From: a bacterium
GTDB lineage: Bacteria > Zhuqueibacterota > Zhuqueibacteria > Oceanimicrobiales > Oceanimicrobiaceae
Length of the DNA stretch: 64,000 nucleotides
Assembly: GCA_037446635.1 (NCBI GenBank)
Contig: JBBIIG010000004.1
Span: forward strand, 100,859 to 164,858
Reading direction: 5' to 3'
The translations under genes and the position numbers were made by a program. Under the pieces are notes generated by a model that was given only the letters and a program-made list of their open reading frames with translations, ran no database searches and was not told where the DNA came from. Shown here piece by piece: positions 2,003-44,155 of the stretch (the stretch's first letter is position 1; the number at the start of each line of letters is the position of its first letter).

Positions 2003-2272
2003 TTAAGCCTTCTCAAGTTTTGGCCTTCGTGCTGGCACACCGTAAAGCATACCCTCGACGCTAATATCCTCGTCAATGTCCGGCCAATGCACACCATGGC
2101 CATCTCCAATTAGCTCATAATTTTGTCGCTGAGCCGGCGTCGCGTCCGACAATCGCCAAGACCAGCACAGTGGCACACTAATCGTTCGCCCATCGGTTAA
2201 TTCCGCGGTGATGGTGTCGTCGGAAACATGAATGTGTTTTATCTTCGCGTCAATGTTAACCACAGTGTTCAT
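2003..2272 (-). CDS. DUF2442 family small protein (partner of DUF4160; putative TA-like pair)
   Basis: Small ORF; MNTVVNIDAKIKHIHVSDDTITAELTDGRTISVPL matches the DUF2442 pattern; overlaps the upstream DUF4160 gene. Confidence 0.55.
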   Translation of the reverse strand: MNTVVNIDAKIKHIHVSDDTITAELTDGRTISVPLCWSWRLSDATPAQRQNYELIGDGHGVHWPDIDEDISVEGMLYGVPARRPKLEKA

Positions 2273-2492
2273 CCCACGCCTCAGTGATTTGATCAATTTT
2301 CTCTACAATTATTTTTCGAATCCGGTTTAGCTCTTTAGCAGAAAACTTATAATTCTTACAGAGAACGACTGGCTCCAACCAAAATTTACACAGACTCTTT
2401 CCTCGTTGAACGTGAACATGTTTAGGTTCATTACAGTCAAAACTATAAAAGAAAAAACGATAAGGGCCAACAATGTTCTTGATAGTAGGCAT
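2256..2492 (-). CDS. DUF4160 family small protein
   Basis: 78 aa, MPTIKNIVGPYRFFFYSFDCNEPKHVHVQRG...; pairs with DUF2442; inserted between nuoE and nuoF. Confidence 0.55.
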   Translation of the reverse strand: MPTIKNIVGPYRFFFYSFDCNEPKHVHVQRGKSLCKFWLEPVVLCKNYKFSAKELNRIRKIIVEKIDQITEAWDEHCG

Positions 2493-2500
2493 GAATGAAT

Positions 2501-2992
2501 TTACTTCATGACCTTTCCGTTTTTTAGCTTCTCCACAATCTCATCAATTTTTTTCTCGCTCAAATTGTCGATGTAATCCTCGTTCAACTGCATCATCGGC
2601 GCGGTTTCACAGGAAGCGAGGCATTCCACTTCGGTGATGGTGAATTTCAAATCCGCACTGGTTTCGCCGGGTTTGATGCCCAGCCGCTCCGATAAATGTT
2701 TCAAAATATTTTCGCAGCCGCCCAAATCGCACGACAAACCGCGGCACACTTGAAAATGATATTTGCCGCGCGGCTGGCGGGCGATGAGCGTGTAAAACGT
2801 CATCACCTCGTGCACTTTCACTGGCGGCACTTGCAGCAGCGATGCCACATAAACTTCCACTTCCGGCGAAACGTGGCCGAATTCTTTCTCCGCCAAATAT
2901 AAAACCGGCAGCATCGCCGCCTGACGCTGCGGGTACTGATTGACGATTTCGTCAAACTTTTTTCGCGCCGCCGCCGAGAATTCTACGCTCAC
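2501..2992 (-). CDS. nuoE: NADH-quinone oxidoreductase subunit E (24 kDa, 2Fe-2S)
   Basis: 163 aa; CRGLSC...C...CLASCETAP thioredoxin-like 2Fe-2S motif. Confidence 0.9.
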   Translation of the reverse strand: MSVEFSAAARKKFDEIVNQYPQRQAAMLPVLYLAEKEFGHVSPEVEVYVASLLQVPPVKVHEVMTFYTLIARQPRGKYHFQVCRGLSCDLGGCENILKHLSERLGIKPGETSADLKFTITEVECLASCETAPMMQLNEDYIDNLSEKKIDEIVEKLKNGKVMK

Positions 2993-4863
2993 CGATCCAA
3001 TTCTCCTGCAATCATGTTAATGGAACCAAACGTCGGAATGATATCCGCCACCTGCGCGCCTTCAATCATTTTATGAAAGCCGGCCACAAATGCAAAGCAC
3101 GGCGGCCGGCAGCGCACGCGATGGGCTTTGTCCGTGCCGTCGCTGACAATATAAAATCCCAGCTCACCGTTCGCGCCTTCGACCGCGTGGTACGCTTCTC
3201 CGCGCGGCGGACGAATGCCGTAGCCTTCCATAATCAGCATAAAATGATTCATCAGCCCCTCGATGCTGCCGTAGGTTTTTTCTTTCGCCGGCAGGGCTAC
3301 TCGTTTATCATGAGTATAAACCTGATCGTGATAGGGCTTGTTGCTTCCCAGGAGCGTCGGGTCGGTCACCGCCACTTGATGCAGCAGGTCGTGGGTTTGT
3401 CCGAATTTGCCGAGGTCCGCCATTTTTTCGGCAGGAATTTCTTTGCCCTCGAAGTCCACCATCACCGCGCCGGCAGGCATCTTTTTGAAGGCCTGTTCGA
3501 TGATGCGCATGCTCTGCTCCATCTCTTCCATGCGCACGAGATAGCGATCGTAGATATCGCCGTTTTCGCCAACTGGAATTTCAAAGTTGATCTGATCGTA
3601 ATTGCAATACGGAAACGCCTTGCGTATATCGTATTCCACGCCGCAGGCCCGTAGCATGGGGCCGGTGAAGCTGAAAGAAATCGCGTCTTCTTTGGAAATC
3701 GCGCCCACGTGCTGCGTGCGATCAACAAAGATGCGGTTGCGGGTCAGCAGCTTGTGCACCTCTTTGATTTCATGGCGAACTTTTTTCAGCTTTTCGTGGA
3801 CACGCTGCTCGAAGCCCGGCGGCAGGTCGCCTTTCACGCCGCCGACGCGTACATAGGAAATGGTAACGCGCGCGCCGGTGACTTCTTCGATCAGCTCGTA
3901 CAAATATTCTCGTGCTTGCATAAAATAGAGAAACGCGGTCATCGCCCCCATCTCCATCGCCATGGCGCCAATGCAGGTGAGGTGATCCGCGATGCGGGAG
4001 ATTTCGCTCATGATCATGCGAATGTATTTGCAGCGCTCGGTCACCTCAATGCCCAACAATTTCTCAACGGTTTGCGCGTAGCCGACATTGTTGATGAGCG
4101 GCGAAACGTAATTCAAGCGGTCGGTGTACGGGAACACGCCGTTGTAATAGATGTTCTCTGAATGCTTCTCAAACGAACGATGCAGATAACCGATTCCCAA
4201 ATCCGAGTTGACTACTTTCTCGCCATCCAGCTCAAGAATAATTTTAATGACCCCATGCATCGCGGGATGCGATGGCCCCATGTTCAAAAACATGTGTTTC
4301 ACCTTCAAACCATTTTCTTCGGAGACGTATTCGTCCATGGCCTTGTGCATCAAATCCAGCGAAGGCGAGGTGGTGCCGTTTTTGCTGAAGGTCGCCCCCA
4401 CCAGCGGCTGGCGTTTGTTGATGGGATAATCCTTGCGCAACGGGTGGCCCTTGAATTCGTCATACATCAATAGCCGTCGCAAATCGGGGTGCCCCTTGAA
4501 GCGGATGCCGAACATGTCCCACACTTCCCGCTCGTACCAGTTGGCAATCTGCCAGATGTCGGAGACGGTTGGCGCCTGCGGGTCGCGTTCATCCACGGGA
4601 ACTTTGAGACGAAGACGTTGATTGTTTTTGAACGAGTGCAGATGATACACAACTTCAAAGCGCGGATCGCGGCCGAGGTAATCGACGCCTGCGAGATCCA
4701 CCAGCATGTCAAATTTTAAATTGGGATCGTCGCGCAAGAAGCGGCAAATGTCGCGAATGACGGCTTTATCAACCACCACCAAATCGTCGCCGCGATAGGT
4801 GTAGGCTTCGTAAAGGTGATCGGAAAATTTATCTTGAAGAGCTTTGAAGATTTTTTGAGCCAT
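2989..4863 (-). CDS. nuoCD: NADH-quinone oxidoreductase fused subunits C/D
   Basis: About 624 aa from MAQKIF...; the N-terminus is the 30 kDa NuoC domain and the C-terminus is the 49 kDa NuoD domain, ending ...SINMIAGELDR. The start overlaps the nuoB stop as TAATG. Confidence 0.88.
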   Translation of the reverse strand: MAQKIFKALQDKFSDHLYEAYTYRGDDLVVVDKAVIRDICRFLRDDPNLKFDMLVDLAGVDYLGRDPRFEVVYHLHSFKNNQRLRLKVPVDERDPQAPTVSDIWQIANWYEREVWDMFGIRFKGHPDLRRLLMYDEFKGHPLRKDYPINKRQPLVGATFSKNGTTSPSLDLMHKAMDEYVSEENGLKVKHMFLNMGPSHPAMHGVIKIILELDGEKVVNSDLGIGYLHRSFEKHSENIYYNGVFPYTDRLNYVSPLINNVGYAQTVEKLLGIEVTERCKYIRMIMSEISRIADHLTCIGAMAMEMGAMTAFLYFMQAREYLYELIEEVTGARVTISYVRVGGVKGDLPPGFEQRVHEKLKKVRHEIKEVHKLLTRNRIFVDRTQHVGAISKEDAISFSFTGPMLRACGVEYDIRKAFPYCNYDQINFEIPVGENGDIYDRYLVRMEEMEQSMRIIEQAFKKMPAGAVMVDFEGKEIPAEKMADLGKFGQTHDLLHQVAVTDPTLLGSNKPYHDQVYTHDKRVALPAKEKTYGSIEGLMNHFMLIMEGYGIRPPRGEAYHAVEGANGELGFYIVSDGTDKAHRVRCRPPCFAFVAGFHKMIEGAQVADIIPTFGSINMIAGELDR

Positions 4864-5339
4864 TAATATTCGTGTTTCTGTTTTTGAATTTTTTCCTGCA
4901 GCAGCATGAGTCCTTGAATCACGGTTTCGGGTCGTGGGGGACAACCGGGAATATAAACATCCACTGGCACGATGGTATCGATGCCGATGACCGTGGAGTA
5001 ATCGTCATAAAATCCACCCGTGCAGGTGCAGACGCCAAACGCGACAACGTATTTCGGCTCGCACATTTGATCGTAAACCCGCCGCAGCACCGGCGCAATT
5101 TTCTGGCTGACGGTGCCGACGCACATCAGCATGTCGGCCTGCCGCGGCGAGAAGCGCGGAAAGGCCGCGCCGAAGCGATCCAAATCGTAATGCGCCGAAG
5201 ACACCGACATATATTCCATGCCGCAGCAGGCGGTGACGAACGGATACGGAAACAACGAATATTTTCTGGCCCAACCGATCGCTTCATCGAGCTTGGTGGT
5301 GACCATGTTGTCGCCGCCCAACAAATTTCTCAATCCCAT
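4863..5339 (-). CDS. nuoB: NADH-quinone oxidoreductase subunit B (20 kDa, 4Fe-4S N2)
   Basis: CCGMEYM ... GCPPRPE motifs; the long N-terminal extension of the raw ORF overlaps nuoA, so an internal start is likely. Confidence 0.85.
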   Translation of the reverse strand: MGLRNLLGGDNMVTTKLDEAIGWARKYSLFPYPFVTACCGMEYMSVSSAHYDLDRFGAAFPRFSPRQADMLMCVGTVSQKIAPVLRRVYDQMCEPKYVVAFGVCTCTGGFYDDYSTVIGIDTIVPVDVYIPGCPPRPETVIQGLMLLQEKIQKQKHEY

Positions 5340-5683: not shown

Positions 5684-5704
5684 AAGTCAGTAATCCTATA
5701 AAAA

Positions 5705-6679: not shown

Positions 6680-6779
6680 TCGTGAGCTTTCGACGTCATT
6701 TTTTCGGGGGTCAATATAGGGAGTTTAGATAAAGAATTCAACAGATTTTATGGGGTGATTTGTTTACAATTTCATGAAA

Positions 6780-7047
6780 AAATGTCATTGCGAGGCGCTT
6801 TTTGCCTGCCCGCCAGAGGTTTTAGGCAGGCGGGCCGAAGCAATCTCCTGCGTCACCGAGGGGAGTGCTTCGCTGCAAAGCGCATCTGAGGACACAGGAG
6901 GTGTCATTTCGAACCTCGACGCTTTTAGTCGAGGTTCGAAATCTGGGGAAGCACAGATCAAGCTATGCCAATTTAATTCTGCATACATTCGCTGATACTA
7001 ATCTCCGTCAGATTTCTCGACTCCGCTGCGCTCCGTCGCGAAATGAC
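6780..7047. repeat. Structured intergenic element inside the E1alpha-E1beta spacer, built from nested inverted repeats
   Basis: Perfect palindrome ttcgaacctcgac-gcttttag-gtcgaggttcgaa (~6903-6935); hairpin gcctgcccgcc...ggcaggcgggc (~6805-6833); tgtcatt(g/t)cg at 6783 and 6897 and its reverse complement cgaaatgaca at 7034. Confidence 0.4.
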
Positions 7048-7099
7048 AGTAACCTCATCTGAGTTTTCGGTTTCCTCTTCGATGCAAATTCTCCCTTTT

Positions 7100-10759: not shown

Positions 10760-10990
10760 TTAGATTTGTTTCAACAGATCGTTAAATTCATCAATTGTCA
10801 AATCCGCGTCGCGAATAATTCCGCGCTGCGTCCCTTTGGGAAGATCTTGATTGCCATGACACGGAACCACCACAATTCTTTGGCCATTGTCCAATATTGC
10901 ATGACTACCTTTCCATCTCTTGACCGCGAACCCAACTTTCTTCAAAACCTTGACAACGTCGTTCCCCTTCGCGGGAATCATCTTACTCAT
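10760..10990 (-). CDS. hicA: HicA family toxin (mRNA interferase)
   Basis: 76 aa YcfA/HicA-like (VLKKVGFAVKRWKGSHAIL); immediately downstream of hicB with a 4-nt overlap. Confidence 0.7.
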   Translation of the reverse strand: MSKMIPAKGNDVVKVLKKVGFAVKRWKGSHAILDNGQRIVVVPCHGNQDLPKGTQRGIIRDADLTIDEFNDLLKQI

Positions 10991-11190
10991 ATTTCGATTT
11001 CGATGGATTCGCCAACTTTTCGGTAGTCATTGATACGAAGATTCAAAACCTCCAAATAGCCTGCAATCGCTTCTTTGATGTTATTGATGGCTTCCTCTTT
11101 GTTGTTGCCCCATGAATGACATCCCGGCAACGCGGGCACGTGCGCGGAAACACGTCCATCATCTTCCTTTTCTAAAATGATTTCGTATTT
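10987..11190 (-). CDS. hicB: HicB family antitoxin
   Basis: MKYEIILEKEDDGRVSAHVPALPGCHSWGNNKEEAINNIKEAI is the UPF0150/HicB fold motif. The longer raw ORF carries an N-terminal extension that is probably spurious. Confidence 0.65.
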   Translation of the reverse strand, partial: KYEIILEKEDDGRVSAHVPALPGCHSWGNNKEEAINNIKEAIAGYLEVLNLRINDYRKVGESIEIEI

Positions 11191-11334
11191 CATCGATTTT
11201 ACTCCTGACTTAACTGACTTTCGTCGATTATCGCTTTTGATAATTTGGTAAGTAATCACGCCGAGGCCAATCATAAAAATCACAAAAGCGGTCACCGGAA
11301 ACCAAACCATTTTATAGTGCCTCCAATGGAGAGA

Positions 11335-11571
11335 TCATGATTGTACCAAGTCCGTTGGACATAAGCATGGCTTACATAACTTTCTTTGCCTTCTTTCTCC
11401 TTTTAGTTTTGGAAAAACTGAAACCAATGCACGAAGGGCGGAATTTACGCTCTCTGAGTCAGGAAAGAATTCGACTAAATCAGGTTCAATCACGACAATG
11501 TTGGTGCCCTCCGCATATTTCTTCGCATATTTATTGGGGCGAGCTTTTGAAAAATCATATTCTTTTCTCAT
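11335..11571 (-). CDS. brnA: BrnA-like antitoxin (DUF4415)
   Basis: MRKEYDFSKARPNKYAKKY...VVIEPDLVEFFPDSESVNSALRAL matches the BrnA/DUF4415 pattern; located immediately downstream of brnT. Confidence 0.6.
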   Translation of the reverse strand: MRKEYDFSKARPNKYAKKYAEGTNIVVIEPDLVEFFPDSESVNSALRALVSVFPKLKGERRQRKLCKPCLCPTDLVQS

Positions 11572-11586: not shown

Positions 11587-11870
<284 letters not shown>

Positions 11871-12430: not shown

Positions 12431-12473
12431 ATCATTCCTCTGTCATTTTGTAATGAAGTCTTAGTTGGTCAGA

Positions 12474-12565
12474 ACGTGGAGTAATGGATTGATAGATTAG
12501 TGGATCAGTAATTTCAGTACTCCAGAACTCCATTAATCCATTGATCCATTAATCCACTTTATCCA
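12474..12565. repeat. Family A composite hairpin repeat (8-bp units with a TGGA core, then units with a TCCA core)
   Basis: Left arm gtggagta atggattg atagatta gtggatca ... ; right arm agtactcc agaactcc attaatcc attgatcc attaatcc. Confidence 0.55.
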
Positions 12566-14403: not shown

Positions 14404-14469
14404 AACCTAAATAACTCACAAGTTTTGAAATCCGACAACTTCGATGTTAATGAAGCTCTGTTGTTTAGA

Positions 14470-14553
14470 ATGTGGAGTAATGGAGTTTTGGATTAATGGA
14501 TCAATGACGAAAAAACTGCATTAATCCATTGATCCATCAATCCACTAATCCAT
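14470..14553. repeat. Family A composite hairpin repeat
   Basis: gtggagtaatggagttttggattaatggatcaatg ... cattaatccattgatccatcaatccactaatccat. Confidence 0.55.
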
Positions 14554-14583
14554 TTGCCTCAGTGTCCTTTAAGTCGTCCTGAG

Positions 14584-14991
14584 TTATCTCCGGTACGGTA
14601 ACAACTTTAATCCACTAATAAAATCATAATCGCGCCGATTCTTTGAAACAAAGGATAGATTCAAAGTCATTGCGGTTGCGGCAATCAAAGCGTCAGGTAT
14701 TGCTAATCCGTGACTCAATCGGTACTTGCGCAACAAATTGATCGCTTCGTCCGAGATTGACTCGGTAATTTTGAGGACCTGAAATCTTTTCAGAAAACGA
14801 TTTGTGTGTTGCAGCTCAGTTTTGTTTCGACAACCAACAATCAACTCCATTTCCGTTACAACACTGGCAGCCAGTTTTGATTCTTTCTCCGCTTCGTTCA
14901 AATAGTCAACAGCATCTTTGATTTTTCTTGCCGCATCAATCAGGATATCAGTATCAATAACAGTCAATTCATTCATCAACTGCGCTCCCAT
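14584..14991 (-). CDS. vapC: PIN domain toxin (VapC-like)
   Basis: 135 aa; the IDTDILID start and conserved acidic residues indicate a PIN domain. Confidence 0.7.
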   Translation of the reverse strand: MGAQLMNELTVIDTDILIDAARKIKDAVDYLNEAEKESKLAASVVTEMELIVGCRNKTELQHTNRFLKRFQVLKITESISDEAINLLRKYRLSHGLAIPDALIAATAMTLNLSFVSKNRRDYDFISGLKLLPYRR

Positions 14992-15215
14992 TCACGGCGC
15001 CGTAAGTTGCGCACCCATTCGGTGCTGTCCTTCATGTCCTCCCTATCCCGCCACATGCCGATGAATGGCTCGTCGCGTAATCGTGTCGGCTTGGTCTTCT
15101 TACTTGCTCTTTCTATTTGGTAGCGACTCTTCAAAAAAGCAACAAAATCCCTGACCTGCTTTTGCGCGTCAGGCGGTAAGGAAGCTATGTCTTCTATTAT
15201 TCTTGCTACTTCCAT
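14976..15215 (-). CDS. vapB: VapB-like antitoxin (DUF2281-like)
   Basis: The internal start MEVARIIEDIASLPPDAQKQVRDFVAFLKSRY gives an ~80 aa protein; the longer raw ORF overlaps the upstream ATP-grasp gene. Confidence 0.5.
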   Translation of the reverse strand: MEVARIIEDIASLPPDAQKQVRDFVAFLKSRYQIERASKKTKPTRLRDEPFIGMWRDREDMKDSTEWVRNLRRREWERS

Positions 15216-15216
15216 T

Positions 15217-16818
15217 TCAACCTCTTCGTTTAAAACTTCGTGTGCTTCGTGCCCTTCGTGGTTTTGCTCTTTTCTTAGTGGAACGCGTCCTTTCATTTCC
15301 ATCCAGCCCCGCAATCGGCAAATCGATATACGCCCCTTTGTTGCCGTGAAAGATGCATTCAATCTCGCACGCCAAACATTCGATGCACTTGCCGGCTTTT
15401 GCTTCTTCGCGGGTGATGGCCAGCACCGGCACATCTTTTTCCAATTTCAGAATTTCCGGGATGCAGCTCGACACGCAAATCTTGCTTTCGCATTTCAGAC
15501 AGGCGGCGTGATCGTAAGTGATCGAGCCGGTCAGCGTGGCGAATTTGTAAGGCTTCTTCGCTTTGGGTTTTTGAAATTTCTTTTTCGTCCGAGTTGGTTT
15601 ATATGAATCCACCAACGCGCGCAGCCGCTGGGCGCAGAACTCCGCGGAGTCATCTTTTTTGTAACCCTCGACCGGCGCGGGCAAATCTTTGGTGTAATTA
15701 GTGAGAATCTCAACGGCTTTGTCCTCGGCGTTGCCGCCCAAACGAATCACCGCCGGAATAGAAAGATTCTCTTCCCGGAACGCCTTTACCAGTCCGCGCG
15801 CGGAATGAAATTGTTCCTGACTGGCCACGCCCGATCCCGAGCCAAAATAGGCATCGATATTCTTTTGCGAAAGAATGATCTTCGCGGCGCGATAGACTTT
15901 CGACGCCGGGGGATTGCCGCTGGTGTCGGTGAAATTCGCGATTTTGAATCCCTGCCGCGTCACCGCGTCCATCGACATCATCGAGCCGCCGCCGCCCGCG
16001 CCATGAAATCCGATGTAACCCTCGCCCTTTTTGAAATTCTGCTCCATCTGGATGAAATAGAACGTGCCGCGATAATCGTTCTTCTCAACGTTGTAGGCGA
16101 TTTTGTCCAACTCCGTCGGCGGACGATCCAGCTCGCGGGCGATTTCGATGCCCAACTCCGGATGGCGAAACACCGCGTAATCATCCACGGTGATGCGGCA
16201 GTCCGCGGCAACAGGATCGCCATTTTCAACTATCACCAGCGGATTGATTTCCGCGGAACGCGCCTCGTACGTGCGCGCCACGTTCCACAGTTTCACCAGC
16301 ACGTCGGCCAACTTCGCTTGTGTCGCGCCAGTGATGCCAGTTTGGCGAATGAGATTGCGCGCCTGAAATTCTTTGAAGCCCTCGACGATATCGATGCCGG
16401 CTTTCGCGACTTTGTCCGGATGCGCGGCGGCAATTTCCTCGATGCCGGTGCCGCCAATCGCGCTGAAAATGATCACCGGCTGGCGCTCGCGATCATCGAT
16501 GATGATGCCCGTGTAAAATTCCTGTTTGATGCCGAGCTTCTCCTCCACCAGCACCTGATCCACCACAAAATTTTTGACCGCGAGTCCGAAAAGTTTTTTT
16601 GAAAGGCGCTTGGCTTCGGCTGGCGTGCTAGCAAATTGAATCCCGCCGATGCCGGCGCGGCCGGTGGTCCAAACCTGCGCTTTCAGTACGACAGGCTTGC
16701 CAATTTTCGTCGCCGCTTTAAAGACTTCTTCCGGAGTTTTGCACACACTACCGGCGGGCGTCGGTATTTTGGCGTTTCGTAGAAGTTCTTTGCCTTGATA
16801 TTCGTGGAGTCGGGCCAT
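15217..16818 (-). CDS. Succinyl-CoA synthetase beta-like ATP-grasp subunit with a C-terminal 2x[4Fe-4S] ferredoxin-like domain (citryl-CoA synthetase large subunit-like)
   Basis: 533 aa; SucC-like N-terminus MARLHEYQGKELL; the C-terminal ~80 aa carries CLKCESKICVSSC and CIECLACEIEC cysteine clusters. Confidence 0.7.
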   Translation of the reverse strand: MARLHEYQGKELLRNAKIPTPAGSVCKTPEEVFKAATKIGKPVVLKAQVWTTGRAGIGGIQFASTPAEAKRLSKKLFGLAVKNFVVDQVLVEEKLGIKQEFYTGIIIDDRERQPVIIFSAIGGTGIEEIAAAHPDKVAKAGIDIVEGFKEFQARNLIRQTGITGATQAKLADVLVKLWNVARTYEARSAEINPLVIVENGDPVAADCRITVDDYAVFRHPELGIEIARELDRPPTELDKIAYNVEKNDYRGTFYFIQMEQNFKKGEGYIGFHGAGGGGSMMSMDAVTRQGFKIANFTDTSGNPPASKVYRAAKIILSQKNIDAYFGSGSGVASQEQFHSARGLVKAFREENLSIPAVIRLGGNAEDKAVEILTNYTKDLPAPVEGYKKDDSAEFCAQRLRALVDSYKPTRTKKKFQKPKAKKPYKFATLTGSITYDHAACLKCESKICVSSCIPEILKLEKDVPVLAITREEAKAGKCIECLACEIECIFHGNKGAYIDLPIAGLDGNERTRSTKKRAKPRRARSTRSFKRRG

Positions 16819-16874: not shown

Positions 16875-17447
16875 TTAGACTCTGAGCGTGCCGCGGAACC
16901 CTCTGGCGCCGTAATAAGATTCCGCACCGTTGTGATAGACGAAGACAGTGTTGTAGCGGCGATCACAGAAGAGCGCGCCGCCGAGTTTTCTAATATCAGC
17001 AGGTGTTTTCACCCAGCTCGACGTTTTCGTATCGAACTCTCCAAGTTTCTGCAGCTCCCGATATTGTTCTTCCGTTAAAATCTCAATGCCCATGTCAGCA
17101 GCCATATCCATAGCGCTAGCTTTTGGTTTATGTTCTTTCCTTGACTCCAGCGCTTCACGGTCGTAACAAACACTTCTGCGGCCTTTAGGAGTTTCCGCTG
17201 AACAATCAAAAAAAATGTAGTCGCCCTTTTTATCATAACCAACAACATCCGGTTCACCGCCAGTTCTTTCCATTTCATGGAGCGACCACAGTTTTTCGGG
17301 ATTAGCTTCCAGCTTTGCGTGTACTTTAGCCCATTCAAGACCTTTATGGCGGTTCATGTTTTTCTCAAAACGGGCTTTCAACACTCCGAGTAGATCTTCA
17401 CGTTGTTCTGGCGATAACGCCCTTTTATTGCTATTAAAGTTCTTCAT
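16875..17447 (-). CDS. DUF4256 domain-containing protein
   Basis: 190 aa; MKNFNSNKRALSPEQREDLLGVLKARFEKNMNRHKGLEW...MERTGGEP resembles DUF4256 family members. Confidence 0.45.
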   Translation of the reverse strand: MKNFNSNKRALSPEQREDLLGVLKARFEKNMNRHKGLEWAKVHAKLEANPEKLWSLHEMERTGGEPDVVGYDKKGDYIFFDCSAETPKGRRSVCYDREALESRKEHKPKASAMDMAADMGIEILTEEQYRELQKLGEFDTKTSSWVKTPADIRKLGGALFCDRRYNTVFVYHNGAESYYGARGFRGTLRV

Positions 17448-18197: not shown

Positions 18198-18539
18198 CTA
18201 TGCAGGACGATTTATTCGCAAAAGCTTACGCTTGAGGGTCTTTTGCGTTTTTATTGCGTCATGAATTCTTTTAGCCAGCGCCAGAAAATTTAGATCGAAT
18301 GAACAAACAATAATGCCTTCGTGATCCGTCATCGATCCATGCAATTTAACAAAATGCTTTCGATTAATAGTCAACAAAGCTCTTTGATCTTTGGTGGCCT
18401 CACTGAGAACTTCTTCATCAGGCAACGCTTGTTGGGCTTTTCCGGTCTCTTGAATAGTGATTACATCATGACCCAATCTGCGAAGTTCCTCAACCGCGGG
18501 ATAAGGAAAATTCTCGTTGGCATATAGGCGCGCCATCAT
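18198..18539 (-). CDS. DUF5615 family PIN-like protein (putative toxin partner of DUF433)
   Basis: 113 aa; MMARLYANENFPYPAVEELRRLGHDV... matches the DUF5615 pattern; overlaps the DUF433 gene by 4 nt. Confidence 0.55.
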   Translation of the reverse strand: MMARLYANENFPYPAVEELRRLGHDVITIQETGKAQQALPDEEVLSEATKDQRALLTINRKHFVKLHGSMTDHEGIIVCSFDLNFLALAKRIHDAIKTQKTLKRKLLRINRPA

Positions 18540-18889
18540 GCCTCCTCGTTCTCCCGAATTTGCTGCTCGATCTCATCGCGATGGGCCCGCACATAAGCCC
18601 ATGCGTTGACCAAATCTTCCGCACGAAGCGTCGGATAACTTCTCAGCAATTCTGCCTCGGTTGCGCCAAGTCGCCTCGCTTGCTCAAGCAGCCAGACCGG
18701 AATACGAGTTCGCACAATTCGCGGCTCGCCACCACAAACACCGGGCGTGCTCTCGATACCGGGAAACGAATCGCCTAAATCTTGCACAACCCATTGCAGC
18801 AATTCTGCTTTTTCAGCACGCGTCAGAGTTGACAGCAGTTCTTTTGCTTTTTCAGTGTTGGTCATTTTTAGCCCTGAATGAATGAACAT
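18536..18889 (-). CDS. DUF433 domain-containing protein (putative antitoxin)
   Basis: 117 aa; PGVCGGEPRIVRTRIPVWLL is the DUF433 core. Confidence 0.6.
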   Translation of the reverse strand: MFIHSGLKMTNTEKAKELLSTLTRAEKAELLQWVVQDLGDSFPGIESTPGVCGGEPRIVRTRIPVWLLEQARRLGATEAELLRSYPTLRAEDLVNAWAYVRAHRDEIEQQIRENEEA

Positions 18890-19135
18890 TCACGCCGCTT
18901 CTAAAGAACGGACACTGAACACTTCACTTTCTTTCAGCGGTTCAATTTCGGTCTCCGAGACCGTCACCACAGCAATCGTTTCTCCAAGCGCATTGAATAC
19001 TTCCAATGAGTACCCATCTTCAGTAGTACTCTATGGGTGGTATTCCACAATTGTTGCCACATCCCCCCTCTTCAGTCTCTTTTCGGGGAAGTCCCGAAGC
19101 AAGACAACCTCGCTGAATAATTCGTGCTTCATCAT
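18890..19135 (-). pseudogene. DUF4926-like small protein interrupted by an in-frame TAG
   Basis: Own translation: MMKHELFSEVVLLRDFPEKRLKRGDVATIVEYHP*STTEDGYSLEVFNALGETIAVVTVSETEIEPL; the in-frame amber codon is at 19031-19033. Confidence 0.45.
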
Positions 19136-19304
19136 CAACTCACTTCTCTCGACGCTCACTGGATTTAGACTCCATGCTCGGCCCGCCAAGAAATTCCCAG
19201 CGCAATGAATGTAAGAGAATTGAATTCCAAAGCCATTTGTTCCGTGTGGGATTACTTGGCAAAAACCGCACGGAGAAAAATCCCGCGCGAGCAGACGGGC
19301 ATCG

Positions 19305-19350
19305 CTCCACTACTCCAGAACTCCAACACTCCATTAATCCACTAATCCAT
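19305..19350. repeat. Family A repeat, right-arm half copy
   Basis: ctccactactccagaactccaacactccattaatccactaatccatc immediately downstream of lpdA. Confidence 0.45.
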
Positions 19351-21756: not shown

Positions 21757-21969
21757 TTATAAATCCTCGGGTTTCAAACCAGTGTGTTTGGCGATTCTTG
21801 CCAACATCTTTGGGCCAATCTCTTCACGGTCATGAAATGCAAACACAAAATCTGGCCAACCTGTTCTTTCGAGAATCTTGTGCGAACCCGATTGACGTTT
21901 CACGCGCCAACCAATGTGAACAAGCGCTGAAAATACCCGGCGCGCTTTGGTAGCTCGCCATTGGCTCAT
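21757..21969 (-). CDS. hicA: HicA family toxin (second copy)
   Basis: 70 aa; ALVHIGWRVKRQSGSHKIL. Confidence 0.6.
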   Translation of the reverse strand: MSQWRATKARRVFSALVHIGWRVKRQSGSHKILERTGWPDFVFAFHDREEIGPKMLARIAKHTGLKPEDL

Positions 21970-22172
21970 GTGCTCGTCGCAAAATACTCGCCGACTTCTG
22001 GCACCTCTTCGCCGTGCTCGATGCGATCGGCCAGTACACGCAGCGCCAGAGCCTTCACTTTTGCAACGGCTTCATCACGCGTTTGACCGTAGGCCAAAAC
22101 ACCGGGAAGGTCAGGAATTTCTGAGAGCCAGCGTCCGTCTTCTTCTTTTTCGATTTCAATCGTCCATTTCAT
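21966..22172 (-). CDS. hicB: HicB family antitoxin (second copy)
   Basis: 68 aa; MKWTIEIEKEEDGRWLSEIPDLPGVLAYGQTRDEAVAKVKALA. Confidence 0.6.
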   Translation of the reverse strand: MKWTIEIEKEEDGRWLSEIPDLPGVLAYGQTRDEAVAKVKALALRVLADRIEHGEEVPEVGEYFATST

Positions 22173-26354: not shown

Positions 26355-26425
26355 TAGTACGCAGTTGGCAGTTAGCAATTCACAATTGAACGTTCATCGT
26401 TCACAATTCACCATTTGATTTTCAA
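26355..26425. repeat. Family B repeat (cagttggcag / caattcac 7-bp units)
   Basis: gcagttggcagttagcaattcacaattgaacgttcatcgttcacaattcaccatt. Confidence 0.5.
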
Positions 26426-27274: not shown

Positions 27275-27340
27275 GTTGTCAACATGAAAGTTGGCAGTTG
27301 ACAATTGGCAATTCACCATTCACAATTCACCATTGACCAT
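27275..27340. repeat. Family B repeat
   Basis: agttggcagttgacaattggcaattcaccattcacaattcaccattgaccattg. Confidence 0.5.
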
Positions 27341-27783
27341 TGCGTGAAAATCAAATTTATACCATTGGGCATTCCACCCACGCCATCGAAACATTTCTCG
27401 GCTTGCTGCACAGGCACGGCATCAAATGTGTGGTCGATATTCGCCGATTCCCGACCTCCCGCAAACATCCGCAATTTTTGAAAGAGAATTTGGTGCAGAG
27501 TTTAACGCAAACCGGCATCAACTATGTTTGGCTGGGCGGGCAATTGGGCGGATTTCGAGACGGCGGTTACGAAGTCTACCTCGCAACCGATTCATTTCAA
27601 AAAGGTTTAACAGAATTGATGTTACTGGGCAGTCAGCAGCCGACGGCGTTTCTCTGCGCCGAGGCGCTGTATTTTCGCTGCCACCGTCGCTTCATCGCCG
27701 ATGAATTGACGCGGCAAAATTGGCGTGTGCTGCACATCCTGCCCGACGGCAAGCTTCACGAACATCCCGCGAGTCTCTTATGA
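27340..27783 (+). CDS. DUF488 domain-containing protein
   Basis: 147 aa; IYTIGHSTH...FCAEALYFRCHRRFIADEL fits the DUF488 pattern. Confidence 0.6.
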   Translation: MRENQIYTIGHSTHAIETFLGLLHRHGIKCVVDIRRFPTSRKHPQFLKENLVQSLTQTGINYVWLGGQLGGFRDGGYEVYLATDSFQKGLTELMLLGSQQPTAFLCAEALYFRCHRRFIADELTRQNWRVLHILPDGKLHEHPASLL

Positions 27784-32257: not shown

Positions 32258-32422
32258 GTTACTGGAGTACTGGATTGGTGGATTCGTGAACGAGTACGTA
32301 CAAACCGAAGTGTACTTTTGGGGTCATTTCATTGCCTCTGAAAAAACACTGCTCCAAAAGTGTCCTCTTTAAGTGCGGAATTTACAATTTCATAAAACCC
32401 ACGAGAGTTTCGAGGCCCTCGC

Positions 32423-34027: not shown

Positions 34028-34172
34028 GGATTAATAGATCAATGGATTAATGAAGTTTGGCGCAGAGCGACAGGCGTGGAGCGTAGAGCTTCAGATACCG
34101 ATCCGCTTCGCGGAAAAGAGCATGGTGCGCTTCATCCACCACTCCATCAATCCATTACTCCACAAGTGATAA
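34028..34172. repeat. Family A composite hairpin repeat with an extended GC-rich centre
   Basis: ggattaatagatcaatggattaatgaag ... (centre) ... cttcatccaccactccatcaatccattactccac. Confidence 0.5.
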
Positions 34173-37400: not shown

Positions 37401-37472
37401 GGAATTTACATCTTCCAAATTAGCGCCGGCGACGCCTTTAAAGTCTCGAAACGAATGCTGCTTTTGAAGTAA
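34435..37472 (+). CDS. Giant secreted protein: signal peptide, Big_2-like Ig domains, ~9 carboxypeptidase-regulatory-like domain repeats, T9SS type A C-terminal sorting domain
   Basis: The start MFKLKTTLIVLLGL follows an aaggagg RBS. It has repeated ...ITG.V......PIAGA.V......TD..G.Y.I..L..G.Y...A...G...EF(Y/F)D... modules. The C-terminus reads NYPNPFNPQTTIKYQL...IFNVLGQQVRTL...GIYIFQI...KRMLLLK. Confidence 0.7.
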
Positions 37473-37482
37473 AAGGCTAAAC

Positions 37483-37529
37483 GTGCCACGCACAAGTGCC
37501 ACGCACTTCAAAAGTGCGTGGCACTTTAT
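37483..37529 (+). terminator. Hairpin terminator downstream of the giant T9SS protein gene
   Basis: gtgccacgcac-ttcaaaa-gtgcgtggcac is a perfect 11-bp stem followed by tttat; an additional direct copy of the left arm lies just upstream. Confidence 0.55.
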
Positions 37530-37729
37530 AAGACACATAAAAAGGGGGTCGGGTGCAAATCAGAAGAGCGAGTGGTCTCCTCATCCGGCCCCCTTAAAAA
37601 ACTTCGTGCTCTTTGCACTAACCGCAAAGAACGCAATGCTGACGCAAAGGATGCTAAAAAATTGGCGTTGAAATTCAATAAAAGAATTTTAAATTGGGTA
37701 AAATTCATGAATCATCGTCTGGAGGGTGA

Positions 37730-37828
37730 ATGAGCAAGCAGTACAATCGAGTTGAAAAAAGGCGGCGGCGCTTGCGGCGCATCAAACGGCAGCGTGAGCG
37801 AATCAAGGCCGCGGCCAAATCGAAGTAA
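37730..37828 (+). CDS. Candidate 32-aa highly basic small protein
   Basis: MSKQYNRVEKRRRRLRRIKRQRERIKAAAKSK; ggaggg RBS 4 nt upstream; followed by the stem-loop acgccgcccctc...gagggcggcgt (37837-37870). Confidence 0.3.
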   Translation: MSKQYNRVEKRRRRLRRIKRQRERIKAAAKSK

Positions 37829-37988
37829 TGCCGGAAACGCCGCCCCTCTACCACCAAAGGAGGGCGGCGTTGAATTCATCCGATGGTACTCGCAGTGCAC
37901 TCAGCAGCTAAAGTAATAAGCCCGAAAAACAAAGAGGGGAAATGGATGTTAAAATCAGCAGTCAAAATTTTATAAACAATATGGCTCG

Positions 37989-39659
37989 ATGTCCATTGGC
38001 GTGGAAAAACTTTTTAGACCCCAATCCCTCTCGATTCTTGGCTTTCTTGCGCTCTTCGCGCTAAACGGCGCGCTCTCCAGCCAGGAACTTCAAAACCCCC
38101 AGTCTATTGCCGCAATCGATTCAATCACCGTGAATGAAAGCGAACACGCGCTTTATGAAATCGAGCGCCTGCGCTTCGAACGCTGGGTCATCGCCAACAC
38201 CGAAAAATTAACCGACCCGCTGTTGCTGAAAGAAATCGTGCGGCTGAAAAAAGAGGCCGACGCCTTTGCCGAAAAGGACGATTTCACCCTGGCGCTCATT
38301 TGGATGGAAACCATTTGGGACTTATTGAAACCGGACAGCTCACAGACCAGCAGCAACGAGTTGAGCTCAGATTTGGTGAACGATTTTGCCGGCGGCCCTC
38401 TCCTGGAGCCTTCCCCAAAATTCCGCTGGACGAAAGAACTCGTCACCGGCATCGACGTGTGGCGGCAGGAATTTCAATTCACGTTTTTCGAAGGCGACAG
38501 CTCTTTCCTCGAAGGCAGCGGCAATCCTTATTCCGGCGTGCGCGCCGTGTTCGAATACAACCCAAACGCCCGGCAATCCTTCCAGACGCTGGCGTTTTTC
38601 AAATACAGCCGCGATTATCTCGCCGGCGATCTGGAAATCCGCTTGCGAAATCCGCTGGGCCAAAACTCGGCGTGGCGGCTGGAAAACCGATTCGAGGGCT
38701 CCTCGTTTTATCGCGACTTCGACTTAAAATATTTACAGAACCGCACCACGCTCGCTTTCGATTTGCGGCGGCTGGGGCCCCTCGCCATCGATCTCAAAGA
38801 AGAATTTCAGTTGCGAAATTACGCGGACAGCGGCAGCACATATCCAAATTACTACCACAACACACTCAGTGGATTAGCGAAAATTTACACCAACCTCGGC
38901 TCCTATTTGGGCGCCGGCTACCGCAACACGGTGCGCGGACATCCGGATTTTAAAACCAACGACTACTTTGAAAACCGTTTTGAGTTTTCATGGTATCAGA
39001 CGTTGGGCCGCGAGTTGAGCTTCTCCGTCGTAAACGACCTGTACTTTCGCGAGTACCCGAACGCGCCGGCCGATACCATCTTTCAGGATTATCGCGAAAA
39101 CTATTTTCGCACGGATGTCAAAATTCCGTTCACCGCCATTTGGGGAGCTGAAATAGAAGGCAGCGTCACCAGCCGCGATTACAAAAATCTGAACGTGAAT
39201 TTTCCGGACAATACCCTCTGGGAAATCGAACCGCGGCTGTATCTCAAAATAGGAAGGGACTGGCAAGTTTCCGCCGGCGGATACTACAGCGAGCTGAATC
39301 ACCAGAAATTTCCGCTGGCCTCCACCGCGGACGCCGCCAGCATTTTATTCGAAGATTACGAAATGTACGGCCCAACTTTCGCGATCGAATTTTTTAAAAT
39401 CAACGGCGTCATGTTCAACATCCAGCAATCTTTTTTATGGCAGCGCTACCCTACGAGCCGGCAGCGCAATGTCACTAATCTCTCGGTTTACTCGGACCGC
39501 CAAATTTATTCCATTCTTTTTTTTCTAACCTGGAACGTCTCCGCGCGCTGGCGTTTCGCCGCCCTTGCCAACATGGATGACGACCGCAGCCGCCAGCAGG
39601 GCGACAGCAGCGACTCCAACAACACCCTGGTGGGGCTGGAGATCAATTATTCCTTTTGA
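37989..39659 (+). CDS. Hypothetical outer-membrane beta-barrel-like protein
   Basis: 556 aa; signal-like N-terminus; a helical N-terminal region, then a Y/F/N/G-rich segment of alternating hydrophobics ending in a C-terminal ...LEINYSF (terminal Phe). Confidence 0.4.
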   Translation: MSIGVEKLFRPQSLSILGFLALFALNGALSSQELQNPQSIAAIDSITVNESEHALYEIERLRFERWVIANTEKLTDPLLLKEIVRLKKEADAFAEKDDFTLALIWMETIWDLLKPDSSQTSSNELSSDLVNDFAGGPLLEPSPKFRWTKELVTGIDVWRQEFQFTFFEGDSSFLEGSGNPYSGVRAVFEYNPNARQSFQTLAFFKYSRDYLAGDLEIRLRNPLGQNSAWRLENRFEGSSFYRDFDLKYLQNRTTLAFDLRRLGPLAIDLKEEFQLRNYADSGSTYPNYYHNTLSGLAKIYTNLGSYLGAGYRNTVRGHPDFKTNDYFENRFEFSWYQTLGRELSFSVVNDLYFREYPNAPADTIFQDYRENYFRTDVKIPFTAIWGAEIEGSVTSRDYKNLNVNFPDNTLWEIEPRLYLKIGRDWQVSAGGYYSELNHQKFPLASTADAASILFEDYEMYGPTFAIEFFKINGVMFNIQQSFLWQRYPTSRQRNVTNLSVYSDRQIYSILFFLTWNVSARWRFAALANMDDDRSRQQGDSSDSNNTLVGLEINYSF

Positions 39660-40433: not shown

Positions 40434-40821
40434 TTATGGGGCTGATAACTTTTTCGATCTCTTCAGCAGATTTACCAATGAAATGGGCTCGCTGGCAAGA
40501 ATGTTGTCCTCGGAACCTTCGTGCACATGATGGGGATAACCTTTTGCTTGAGGATGATGTGGTGCATTGTCCCAACGCTTCAATAATTTTTGCTGAGAGT
40601 TTTGCCAATGGTAAGAATAACTCAGACGCTCAGGGCGTCCCGCCTCGAACGATAAATATTCGGAAATCTCCAACAAATCGCCATTTATTAAAGTAACACG
40701 AATCCGTATATAAGCAGCATCGATGGTGGCGAAAATTTTTTTTATTGACTACCTTAACTTCGCTGGCATATTTCCAGTTCGATAATTCTTGCTCAATCCG
40801 CTGCAGATAGCTTTTCTTCAA
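40434..40821 (-). pseudogene. DUF6516-like (TumE-like toxin family) gene with a frameshift in an A/T homopolymer
   Basis: Own translation: the N-terminal frame MKKSYLQRIEQELSNWKYASEVKVVNKK... switches in the run ggcgaaaatttttttt (~40727-40745) to ...IFATIDAAYIRIRVTLINGDLLEISEYLSFEAGRPERLSYSYHWQNSQQKLLKRWDNAPHHP...HHVHEG. Confidence 0.45.
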
Positions 40822-41077
40822 GAGTCTCGCTAAGCTCCTTTTCTAGATCTCTAATTTTATTGAGCCGTTTTTTGCTGATATCATAAAAGGCATACCATTC
40901 AAAAAAATCTGTTTCGTGAGCGAGCTCGCCTCGACTAAACTTTTTGAAGAATTCTTGAGAAGGCATATTATAGTTGTTTTCGAACTGCTGCAAGTTTTGC
41001 AATACATCGCCTAAATCTGTGTAGCAGTCTTTCACTTTCTCATTTAGGATTGATAATTCCGGAATAAGGCTGTTCAT
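40793..41077 (-). CDS. Hypothetical small protein, putative cognate partner of the DUF6516-like gene
   Basis: 94 aa; overlaps the downstream gene by 29 nt; AT-rich. Confidence 0.35.
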   Translation of the reverse strand: MNSLIPELSILNEKVKDCYTDLGDVLQNLQQFENNYNMPSQEFFKKFSRGELAHETDFFEWYAFYDISKKRLNKIRDLEKELSETLEEKLSAAD

Positions 41078-41223
41078 AAAAATTTCCTGAAAATTTTGGT
41101 CATTTGAAATTTAACACTTCAATGAGAAAAGTCAATTTTTTCATTGCTTGATTTTTTACTTCGTGAATTGTATATTTGCCCACAAAAATTACGGCACCGG
41201 ACTCGCAAAAGGAAATTTGGACG

Positions 41224-42482: not shown

Positions 42483-42494
42483 TCAGGAGAGTAG

Positions 42495-42710: not shown

Positions 42711-42719
42711 TGTCTGGAG

Positions 42720-42795
42720 GCAGTAAGCAGTTGGCAATTGGCAGAGAAAAGTTGCCTACTGCTTACTGCTTACTGCTAACTGCCAACTGCCAACT
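42720..42795. repeat. Family B composite hairpin repeat
   Basis: gcagtaagcagttggcaattggcag-agaaaagttgcc-tactgcttactgcttactgctaactgccaactgccaac. Confidence 0.55.
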
Positions 42796-42806
42796 TTAGT
42801 GGTTGA

Positions 42807-43655: not shown

Positions 43656-43656
43656 A

Positions 43657-43851
43657 ATGGAATCGCCCAGGAAAACGTGTCCCTTTTGCGGGTCAAACGA
43701 TACGCAAAAGCAGTCCGACTTCGGTACGTCGGTGATGGTTAAGCAGTACTACTGCAACAACTGCCGAACGGTGTTCGAGTGGATCAAATGGGGCGATGAC
43801 GACGCGTTAGACGTGCCTGAGTTTTTGAGGGAAAAGATCGCAAAGCCTTAG
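43657..43851 (+). CDS. Small zinc-ribbon protein
   Basis: 64 aa; CPFCGS ... CNNCRT pairs of CxxC. Confidence 0.4.
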   Translation: MESPRKTCPFCGSNDTQKQSDFGTSVMVKQYYCNNCRTVFEWIKWGDDDALDVPEFLREKIAKP

Positions 43852-43868
43852 TACTAACTGCACAGAGT

Positions 43869-44155
43869 ATGACTAAATCTGACAAACGTTTCTATGGAAA
43901 AAAGAAAAATAAACTTCCAGAATTTTCAAGTCTGAAGGACTTAATTGATTTTTGGGAAGAAGAAGATCTAACAAAATATGAAGATGAATTTGTTGAGGTA
44001 TCAGATCTGAAAATCAACATCAAAGAACGAATGTATTTGCCAGACACAATTCAAAATGTATGAAAAACTCGACTCAATTGCGTCAGCCAAAGGCATCAAG
44101 GTCGAGGAACTAATTCGTCAAATTTTAAATGAAAAGTTGTCGGAACTAGCTTAAT
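43869..44155 (+). pseudogene. CopG/RHH-type antitoxin-like gene split into two frames
   Basis: The N-terminal ORF ...LPEFSSLKDLIDFWEEEDLTKYEDEFVEV has the typical N-terminus of this antitoxin family. A second frame (44060-44155) reads MYEKLDSIASAKGIKVEELIRQILNEKL, which is the RHH-like C-terminus. No toxin gene is adjacent. Confidence 0.35.

Follow-up and report, generated by a model that had tools for sequence, protein, structure and literature searches.

Toxin-antitoxin modules as probable genomic islets at gene junctions of a central-metabolism array in KSB1/Calditrichota-like bacteria

Toxin-antitoxin (TA) cassettes have already been described within operons or in the spacers of core genes (PMC4963859, PMC7232551). 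Chromosomal TA "genomic islets" of Escherichia coli sit between core genes, as ccdAB does in the folA-apaH spacer, and orphan higA antitoxins have been recorded as well (PMC7232551, which cites Ramisetty & Santhosh 2016 and Hayes & Van Melderen 2011). In Synechocystis sp. PCC 6803, TA modules are found inside the hoxEFUYH operon and are transcribed within longer units (Kopfmann et al. 2016, PMC4963859). A DUF4160/DUF2442 pair is listed for Vibrio cholerae (PMC12654330), and such a pair from a Thermus thermophilus plasmid is an experimentally tested TA-like "persistence-enhancing module" (PMC12724237). Genomes known to be rich in TA loci are those of Microcystis aeruginosa (113 loci, the TADB maximum), Synechocystis (76 loci in 3.93 Mb, about 1 per 52 kb), the M. 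tuberculosis complex, Nitrosomonas, and the green sulfur bacteria (PMC4963859, PMC3141249). Here we describe eight small TA modules in a 64,000-nucleotide stretch of bacterial DNA (positions 100,859 to 164,858 of contig JBBIIG010000004.1), referred to as the window, most of them embedded in an array of central-metabolism genes.

Our interpretation, to which we give a probability of roughly 0.78, is that the modules represent type II TA genomic islets, which were acquired horizontally and inserted singly and independently at intercistronic junctions of a conserved, co-directional array. These islets occur in one genus-level lineage of KSB1/Calditrichota-like bacteria, and the locus is an extreme, well-resolved instance, from an uncultivated phylum, of a known phenomenon and not a new kind of system. 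The grounds for this interpretation are the protein families of the modules, the junctions that are empty or differently filled in relatives, the AT-rich composition and common orientation of the cassettes, the purifying selection acting on them, and the recurrent inactivation of their toxins.

The eight modules had first been picked out, with family names, from the letters and open reading frames (ORFs) of the window alone (the sequence-only reading). All eight were present at or very near the coordinates given there, and Pfam and NCBIfam profile searches placed the named family in each module, yielding 16 TA component genes. The named families passed the Pfam gathering thresholds, with BrnT, TumE, and CopG doing so after frameshift repair and DUF4926 as a read-through translation. 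The components, in window coordinates, are as follows.

2003-2296, minus strand, DUF2442, putative antitoxin (PF10387, E = 9e-21)
2256-2492, minus strand, DUF4160, putative toxin, DhiT-like (PF13711, E = 1.2e-17)
10760-10990, minus strand, HicA-1 toxin, intact (PF07927, E = 5e-17)
10987-11310, minus strand, HicB-1 antitoxin (PF15919, E = 5e-10)
11335-11571, minus strand, BrnA-like partner of BrnT (40% identity to its counterpart beside an intact BrnT in the related locus L081)
11587-11870, minus strand, BrnT toxin pseudogene (PF04365, E = 3e-28 on the repaired translation)
14584-14991, minus strand, VapC, PIN-domain toxin (PF01850, E = 2e-14)
14976-15215, minus strand, VapB-type (DUF2281) antitoxin (PF10047, E = 3e-6; NF050009 VapB, E = 9e-7)
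18198-18539, minus strand, DUF5615, PIN-like putative toxin (PF18480, E = 7e-21)
18536-18889, minus strand, DUF433, putative antitoxin (PF04255, E = 1e-18)
18890-19132, minus strand, DUF4926 pseudogene (PF16277, E = 4e-15 on the read-through translation)
21757-21969, minus strand, HicA-2 toxin, intact (PF07927, E = 3e-12)
21966-22172, minus strand, HicB-2 antitoxin (PF15919, E = 5e-7)
40434-40821, minus strand, TumE (DUF6516) toxin pseudogene (PF20126, E = 3e-23 after repair)
40793-41077, minus strand, TumA-like antitoxin of 94 aa (NF045776 TumA, E = 7e-9)
43869-44155, plus strand, orphan CopG/BrnA antitoxin pseudogene (PF12441, E = 6e-8 after repair)

The description of these loci as two-gene modules was right as to the families, which are real, but only about half of the modules are intact pairs. 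Intact pairs are DUF4160/DUF2442, HicBA-1, VapBC, and HicBA-2; the DUF433/DUF5615 pair is also intact and stands beside the broken DUF4926 gene. Recognized toxin and antitoxin families account for all modules, the exceptions being the partners of BrnT and TumE. Both HicBA pairs have the makeup expected of HicAB, and the VapBC, DUF4160/DUF2442, and DUF433/DUF5615 pairs likewise have that of their types. No intact BrnTA module is present at 11587-11870 or 43869-44155, both of which are remnants of modules that are intact in relatives, and the TumE/TumA pair is not intact in the window since its TumE is frameshifted.

The DUF433/DUF5615 combination (COG2442/COG4634) was reportedly predicted as a TA system by Makarova and colleagues in 2009, and we know of no experimental demonstration of it as a TA pair. 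Some NCBIfam matches were weak: the DUF4160 protein scored 21 bits against the DhiT equivalog (cut-off, 100), the TumA-like protein scored 35.8 bits on the TumA model, under its cut-off of 100, and the VapB and VapC models were matched beneath their equivalog cut-offs. The BrnT partner at 11335-11571 matched no Pfam or NCBIfam profile. The G-S-H catalytic motif is present in both HicA copies of the window, and the acidic residues of VapC, as read from its sequence, are D13/D15, E47, D100, and D121. DUF2442 likely starts at the Met at 2272. The HicBA-1 module had been placed at 10760-11190; its start was correct, but 11190 corresponds to an internal Met and HicB-1 reaches 11310. The N terminus so recovered (window 11191-11310) is a 40-residue extension with a hydrophobic, transmembrane-like segment (VWFPVTAFVIFMIGLGVITYQII), and it is kept at the protein level in two relatives (L089 and L091). 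To our knowledge, an N-terminal hydrophobic extension is unusual for a HicB antitoxin. The DUF4160/DUF2442 pair agrees in gene order and overlap with the pair reported in PMC12724237.

The first 25 kb of the window form one co-directional, minus-strand array of central-metabolism genes. In order of transcription, its 5′ part encodes a TRAP dctM permease, a leuC/homoaconitase-like large subunit, YpdA, LpdA, LipB, and a DUF4256 protein; its middle part encodes SucC-like and SucD-like proteins, a citryl-CoA lyase, an HDIG protein, an isocitrate/isopropylmalate-type dehydrogenase (idh), and a PrpD-like protein; and its 3′ part consists of pdhA, pdhB, nuoA, nuoB, nuoCD, nuoE (2501-2992), nuoF (729-1994), and the start of nuoG. 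The SucC-like and SucD-like proteins and the lyase are most likely the two-step citrate-cleavage enzymes, namely, the citryl-CoA synthetase subunits CcsA and CcsB and citryl-CoA lyase (Ccl). Within this array, DUF4160/DUF2442 lies between nuoE and nuoF, VapBC between the SucC-like and SucD-like genes, DUF433/DUF5615 with DUF4926 between lpdA and lipB, and HicBA-2 between the leuC-like gene and ypdA.

A stretch of about 20 kb of the array (window 729-23466) is syntenic across KSB1/Calditrichota-like metagenome-assembled genomes (MAGs), represented by loci L001-L007. It joins citrate cleavage, as in a variant of the reverse tricarboxylic acid (TCA) cycle, with the idh-type and PrpD-like genes, pyruvate dehydrogenase E1, lipB/lpdA, YpdA, and complex I nuoA-F. 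NuoC and NuoD are fused into one protein of 651 aa (window 2989-4944), the NuoD part of which exceeds the NCBIfam NuoD profile by about 50 residues (positions 219-651 of the protein align to 384 profile positions); other models are split into two stretches on the fusion.

To see whether the modules are ordinary operon members or variable cargo, we compared the junctions of the array with those of relatives. Wider relatives came from a scan of one genome per species with citryl-CoA lyase as the query, which returned 80 loci; the best of these were 70 to 77% identical and were labelled candidate division KSB1, Calditrichota, or unclassified bacterium. Near relatives were contigs located by way of proteins that fall into the same 90% clusters as the window proteins, with 83 to 90% DNA identity. 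Loci L001-L007 (60 to 87% protein identity) keep the order leuC-ypdA-lpdA-lipB-ccsA-ccsB-ccl-HDIG-idh-prpD-pdhA-pdhB-nuoA/B-nuoCD-nuoE-nuoF, and the junctions that are filled in the window are mostly empty in them, with gaps of 0 to 25 bp; in L003 and L006 the block has no insertion at all. Enlarged junctions of the more distant relatives also carry TA components (L002, L004, L005, and L007). The contents of the junctions were as follows.

nuoE/nuoF: DUF4160/DUF2442 in the window and L094, with identical boundaries; 125 bp of filler resembling repetitive extragenic palindromic (REP) sequences in L095; overlapping genes (TAATG) in L085; a gap of 3-11 bp in L003, L005, and L006
nuoB/nuoCD: DUF2442 in L005
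pdhA/pdhB: 420 bp of noncoding filler in the window (6680-7099); Unstab_antitox and ParE in L002; CopG in L085; 39-65 bp in L003 and L007
HDIG/idh: both BrnTA and HicBA in the window and L091-L093; HicBA alone in L089 and L090; BrnTA alone in L085; neither in L003 and L006; AbiEii in L004
ccsA/ccsB: VapBC in the window and L084; BrnT and a BrnA-like gene in L081; a gap of 10-25 bp in relatives
lipB/ccsA: a full-length DUF4256 gene in the window (16875-17447, minus strand, a non-TA accessory gene; PF14066, E = 2e-94); DUF433/DUF5615 in L081; MazE/MazF, DUF2283, and a ParE-like toxin in L007; 13 bp in L084
lpdA/lipB: the DUF4926 pseudogene, DUF433, and DUF5615 in the window; DUF4926 alone, and intact, in L081; an empty junction of 58 bp in L084; a gap of 6-15 bp in most wider relatives and 76 bp in L006
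leuC/ypdA: HicBA-2 in the window; a gap of 57-200 bp in relatives
Other junctions in relatives: DUF4258 and an MqsA-like gene after nuoF, and ParE after nuoI

At HDIG/idh, where all four combinations of the two modules occur, a multiple alignment resolved clean, cassette-sized blocks adjoining stop and start codons, and the BrnT/BrnA pairs of L091-L093 are intact. The DUF433/DUF5615 pair at lipB/ccsA in L081 is unrelated to the window pair (36% identical). Outside the array, L087 has an intact TumE, in an intact pair, at the same place as the broken one of the window. A second complex-I-like cluster in relatives also contains DUF4160/DUF2442. The proposal that the pairs are variable cargo, and not conserved members of these operons, was thus upheld by junctions that are empty in syntenic relatives and by gain, loss, and replacement among near ones.

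Two occupants of the array had been missed by the sequence-only reading, the DUF4256 gene and the 420-bp filler. The former was not in any relative examined at this junction (L001-L007, L081, and L084). The latter has no intact ORF in the sense frames, includes sequence resembling the repeat elements of other junctions, and may be a fully decayed insertion.

Insertions of other kinds were seen at array junctions in relatives. A 110-aa TIR_2 gene lies at pdhB/nuoA in L085. In L089 (2928-7685) and L090 (1979-6736), idh is followed by small unannotated ORFs and a gene for a 1084-aa caspase (Peptidase_C14)-NACHT protein, which replace the PrpD-like gene; this appears to be a defense-like insertion at another junction of the array. 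At HDIG/idh in L002, two partial copies of the HDIG 3′ end (4416-4626 and 4986-5177) lie between inserted modules and may be a trace left by several insertions in turn or by recombination involving the flanking gene.

The unusual TA density that had drawn attention to the window was borne out. TA components make up 16 of about 68 genes (~24%) in the window and 13 of 31 in the 22.7-kb metabolic array, against 0.8 to 2.5% of ORFs in the 20 TA-richest genomes of Leplae et al. (PMC3141249). At the Synechocystis rate of 1 locus per 52 kb, 1.2 loci would be expected in 64 kb, and by our own arithmetic the Poisson probability of at least eight is about 4e-5. A 36-kb stretch of a relative's contig (L081 and L085) carries about 10 TA modules, which indicates that the density is a property of the lineage and not of this stretch alone. 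The cassettes have a GC content of 43%, compared with 53% for the other window genes; HicBA-2, the oldest shared cassette, is closest to the host value at 51%.

Almost all of the modules had been described as lying on the same strand as essential genes and tightly packed against them. This held for seven of the eight, which are co-oriented with both neighbors, several of them at distances of 1 to 23 nt, but not for TumEA, which is antisense to its neighbor genes. The additional TA modules at relatives' junctions are all co-oriented. Partner genes overlap by 4 nt in HicBA-1, HicBA-2, and DUF433/DUF5615, by 16 nt in VapBC, by about 17 nt in DUF4160/DUF2442, and by 29 nt in TumEA. Spacing between cassettes and neighbors is tight: DUF4160 starts 8 nt past the nuoE stop codon and DUF2442 stops 8 nt ahead of the nuoF start, VapB starts 1 nt past the ccsA stop, HicB-2 starts 19 nt past that of the leuC-like gene, HicA-1 stops 16 nt ahead of idh, DUF5615 stops 13 nt ahead of lipB, and the other cassette-neighbor spacings are 13 to 23 nt.

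Since the space upstream of several cassettes is only 1 to 23 nt, read-through from the host operon is likelier than transcription from an autoregulated promoter of their own. The cassettes are therefore probably expressed by host-operon read-through, with cotranscription judged from spacing alone. A scan for the sigma-70 consensus found 15 matches against 15.3 expected, and this consensus may not be the promoter type of the phylum; the scan for terminator consensus likewise stayed at background. A terminator-like hairpin lies 3′ of lpdA (19290-19266), and vapC and ccsB are separated by a strong hairpin that lacks a T-tract; these two junctions may be transcript boundaries and not operon interiors.

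A disrupted gene was found in four of the eight modules (those of BrnT, DUF4926, TumE, and CopG), where the sequence-only reading had recognized two remnants. BrnT at 11587-11870 has a single frameshift, with an intact 94-aa orthologue in L091. DUF4926 has one in-frame stop codon, which arose by substitution, and its orthologue in L081 is intact (81 aa). TumE has one extra A within an A-run at 40736; the intact orthologue in L087 is of 128 aa. The CopG gene at 43869-44155 has two homopolymer frameshifts and is joined to the remains of a deleted BrnT, its final codons: 253 bp are missing in the window at this PaaC/esterase junction, taking most of BrnT, while L086 and L088 keep an intact BrnT and CopG.

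Toxins are also broken in relatives. BrnT is truncated in L085, HicA-2 of L084 is inactivated by a GSH-to-GSQ change plus a frameshift, HicA-1 of L091 carries GSY in place of GSH, and DUF4160 of L094 is frameshifted by one extra T. In every case of toxin inactivation, in the window (BrnT, TumE, and the second BrnT) and in L085, L084, L091, and L094, the antitoxin was kept. The cassettes decay toxin-first. All lesions of the window fall within 4.5 kb of TA DNA. The other coding DNA, 54 kb in all, has none, and the 88 homopolymer runs of at least 6 nt that lie there (of 96 in genes) are free of frameshifts. This confinement, despite homopolymers elsewhere, argues that the lesions are not random sequencing errors.

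These observations suggest a course of events for such islets. Insertions would survive only where they do least harm, that is, between cistrons, in the sense orientation, and with the tight stop-start spacing kept. Cassettes in such places would then be transcribed by read-through from the host operon instead of from an autoregulated promoter of their own. An active toxin would make a resident cassette difficult to shed, since cells that lost the antitoxin would then die (addiction), and for the same reason decay would proceed toxin-first, to an orphan antitoxin, then by erosion to noncoding filler. Cassettes may pass from one relative to another by homologous recombination in the conserved flanking sequence.

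Divergence within the shared cassettes bears on their age. Their synonymous divergence (dS) is 0.3 to 2, roughly as in the flanking genes, and their ratio of nonsynonymous to synonymous divergence (dN/dS) is 0.05 to 0.2, with similar values in the flanks; individual values are 0.048 for HicA-2 (against L081), 0.046 for HicB-2, 0.065 to 0.069 for HicA-1, and 0.076 for DUF2442 (against L094). Cassette dS similar to that of the flanks, together with low dN/dS, indicates insertions that are old, vertically inherited, and constrained. The idea that the cassettes are much younger than their flanks was mostly rejected on this basis; dS is lower than in the flanks for the TumA gene and the CopG stub, but with very few sites. 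Same-family modules at different junctions share only 26 to 53% amino acid identity, so recent intragenomic copying between junctions was also rejected. The closest DUF4160 homologue among 5.8 billion proteins is 78% identical, and the top matches span several phyla. Cassettes of the same family would thus appear to have been acquired independently.

Several points weigh against our interpretation. Because dS of most cassettes approximates flank dS, much of the pattern of presence and absence could reflect differential loss from a loaded ancestor and not repeated gain. Constraint on toxins like HicA-2 matches that on housekeeping genes, which pure addiction does not predict and which suggests a benefit at the level of the host. 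No target-site duplication, boundary motif, integrase, or transposase was found that would explain insertion. Every frameshift lies in or beside a homopolymer run, and sequencing error may have contributed to the BrnT and TumE lesions. Finally, the toxicity of the modules and its neutralization are predicted from their families, with indirect support from the antitoxins that persist wherever a toxin is mutated.

The question of host benefit deserves separate treatment, as the constraint on the toxins means that some such benefit may add to addiction. In its full form this explanation holds that the cassettes are domesticated, kept as abortive-infection or anti-phage systems or as stress RNases wired to the expression of the respiratory and TCA operons. 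Toxin and antitoxin are both under strong purifying selection over dS of about 1, TIR-domain and NACHT-caspase genes occur at equivalent junctions in relatives, and a type II/IIG methyltransferase lies in the window. Searches with PADLOC gave one match, of the TumA-like protein to the candidate defense family PDC-M44A, and none for 9 of the 10 proteins tested, among them 7 of the 8 TA proteins and the DUF4256 protein. Furthermore, toxins have been inactivated repeatedly in one lineage or another, no cassette is universally retained, and no TA family is tied to a host operon, since different families share a junction. We consider full domestication unlikely.

A further explanation concerns the sites and not the cargo: the junctions might be dedicated, reusable landing pads at which cassettes are captured and swapped by a site-preferring mechanism, whether integron-like, REP associated, or driven by a recombinase. 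The same junctions do take different families in sister lineages (ccsA/ccsB, lipB/ccsA, HDIG/idh, and pdhA/pdhB), the cassette boundaries are very clean and abut stop and start codons, and the partial duplicates of the HDIG 3′ end in L002 lie between inserted modules. However, no integrase or transposase is encoded among the annotated window genes. Comparison of filled with empty junctions and a repeat search of positions 1-46000 detected neither a target-site duplication nor terminal inverted repeats, and the cassette ends had no motif in common; no attC-like motif or repeat family is common to the cassette boundaries, as it would be in an integron cassette array. Rfam and tRNA scans of the whole window had no matches, so the window has neither a tRNA-linked integration site nor a known RNA antitoxin.

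REP-like repeats (octamer palindromes and CACGAAG-type elements) gather at the cassette junctions, yet empty sites and junctions that lack a cassette have them too. The octamer family, with units such as GGATTAAT or GGAGTNNT and their complements, is intergenic and was found at 12464-12559, 14452-14555, 19300-19357, 32269-32288, 34028-34170, and 45246-45291. Two copies are long palindromes without a T-tract (folds of -39 and -38.5 kcal/mol, with z of -6.2 and -5.0), one of them in a cassette gap.

14452-14555, octamer-repeat palindrome in the VapC-ccsB gap (RNA fold of -39.3 kcal/mol, z of -6.2, no T-tract)

The octamer elements look like REPs or miniature inverted-repeat transposable elements that colonize the same operon junctions as the TA cassettes. 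Selection for sense insertions between cistrons of a 23-kb essential array would also reuse the few permissive sites, and we regard dedicated landing pads as quite improbable.

A second intergenic repeat type, with units like CAGTTGGCA and CAATTCAC, was observed at 26356-26415, 27287-27341, and 42720-42797, with a local palindrome at 42720-42776. Separately, the last 25 or so codons of ccsA (…NHEGHEAHEV…; window 15217-15300) are encoded by a CACGAAG-type element. This tail is present in L081 too and not in L001 or L003, whose protein ends about 25 residues sooner; it looks as if the ccsA frame took in a repeat element just ahead of the VapBC insertion point.

A broader idea combines parts of the preceding ones: stop-start junctions of long essential operons would accrete and swap cassettes (TA pairs, REP-like palindromes, and single accessory genes) with no integrase, the cassettes passing between related genomes by homologous recombination in the flanks, and the TA pairs would in turn shield the 23-kb supercluster against deletion or rearrangement. 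We see this as a long shot; if true, it would be a kind of "integron without an integrase" distributed over core operons. An artifact of chimeric metagenome assembly or binning, or of sequencing errors producing apparent insertions and pseudogenes, might be suspected because the window comes from a metagenome-type NCBI contig of 164,858 bp and all of its frameshifts are in or next to homopolymer runs, but it is effectively refuted by the presence of the same cassettes at the same junctions in independent JGI, Logan, ENA, and NCBI assemblies with 83 to 90% DNA identity, as well as by the 88 homopolymer runs in housekeeping genes without a frameshift, the substitution in DUF4926, and the 253-bp deletion of BrnT.

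Three other regions of the window were noted. A gene for an Eco57I/type II-IIG-like DNA methyltransferase (56473-58392) is followed by a 206-aa ORF without a Pfam match and a convergent 1629-aa ORF (59103-63992); 56473-63992 may be a restriction-modification or defense locus. An intergenic region of about 500 bp (37470-37990), between a gene for a 1088-aa CarboxypepD_reg-repeat protein and a 556-aa gene, is the stretch least conserved against L087 (75 to 84% identity with indels, compared with 90 to 96% in its surroundings), and no convincing ORF was found in it. The plus-strand ORF at 109-555 was rejected as spurious because of its overlap with the 5′ part of minus-strand nuoG.

With the modules read as genomic islets, the locus offers a natural time series of TA cassettes, in which filled, empty, replaced, and decayed states can be compared among genomes that have diverged by 10 to 17%. 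Essential, translationally coupled subunit genes (nuoE/nuoF and ccsA/ccsB) tolerate sense-oriented TA insertions for long periods. The locus can be used to ask whether promoterless TA pairs driven by a host operon differ in behavior from autoregulated ones, whether neighboring genes are stabilized, and why toxins stay constrained. Annotators of MAGs from this clade should not take the small genes that interrupt "operons" for functional partners of the flanking enzymes.

The closest parallels are those outlined at the beginning. Like the E. coli islets, the modules are lone small TA pairs in otherwise short spacers of conserved genes, vary among strains, have no flanking mobile-element genes, and leave orphan antitoxins upon loss of the toxin. 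The window differs in being denser, with six junctions in 23 kb, in having insertions inside coupled subunit pairs (nuoE/nuoF and ccsA/ccsB) and not only between transcription units, and in that different families occupy one junction in sister lineages.

HoxE and HoxF are homologous to NuoE and NuoF, and in the Synechocystis hox operon, as in the window, a strain-variable TA pair lies inside the operon of a multisubunit redox enzyme; the Synechocystis pair has no transcription start of its own, and the window pair probably has none either. A stabilizing role was proposed there and is unproven. Cotranscription is backed by transcriptome data in Synechocystis and judged from spacing in the window, where insertions occupy many operon junctions simultaneously and half of the modules show decay.

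The DUF4160/DUF2442 pair and other such TA loci of V. cholerae lie in its superintegron. The superintegron likewise comprises many small, diverse, co-oriented TA cassettes arranged head to tail; they are promoter-poor and read through from outside, as the window cassettes probably are, and its families overlap with those seen here (DUF4160/DUF2442, ParE, HigB, and others). In contrast, the window has no integrase, attC, or single array, and its cassettes are scattered among essential genes. The Thermus module has the same domain pair, order (DUF4160 first), and size, and its second gene neutralizes the first; it is plasmid-borne, whereas the window copy is chromosomal, lies at nuoE/nuoF, is known from sequence, and has a weak DhiT score. 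With the TA-rich genomes the window shares an expanded, diverse, and horizontally acquired repertoire in free-living bacteria with plastic genomes, and its local share of ~24% over 64 kb is about 10-fold above their genome-wide 0.8 to 2.5%.

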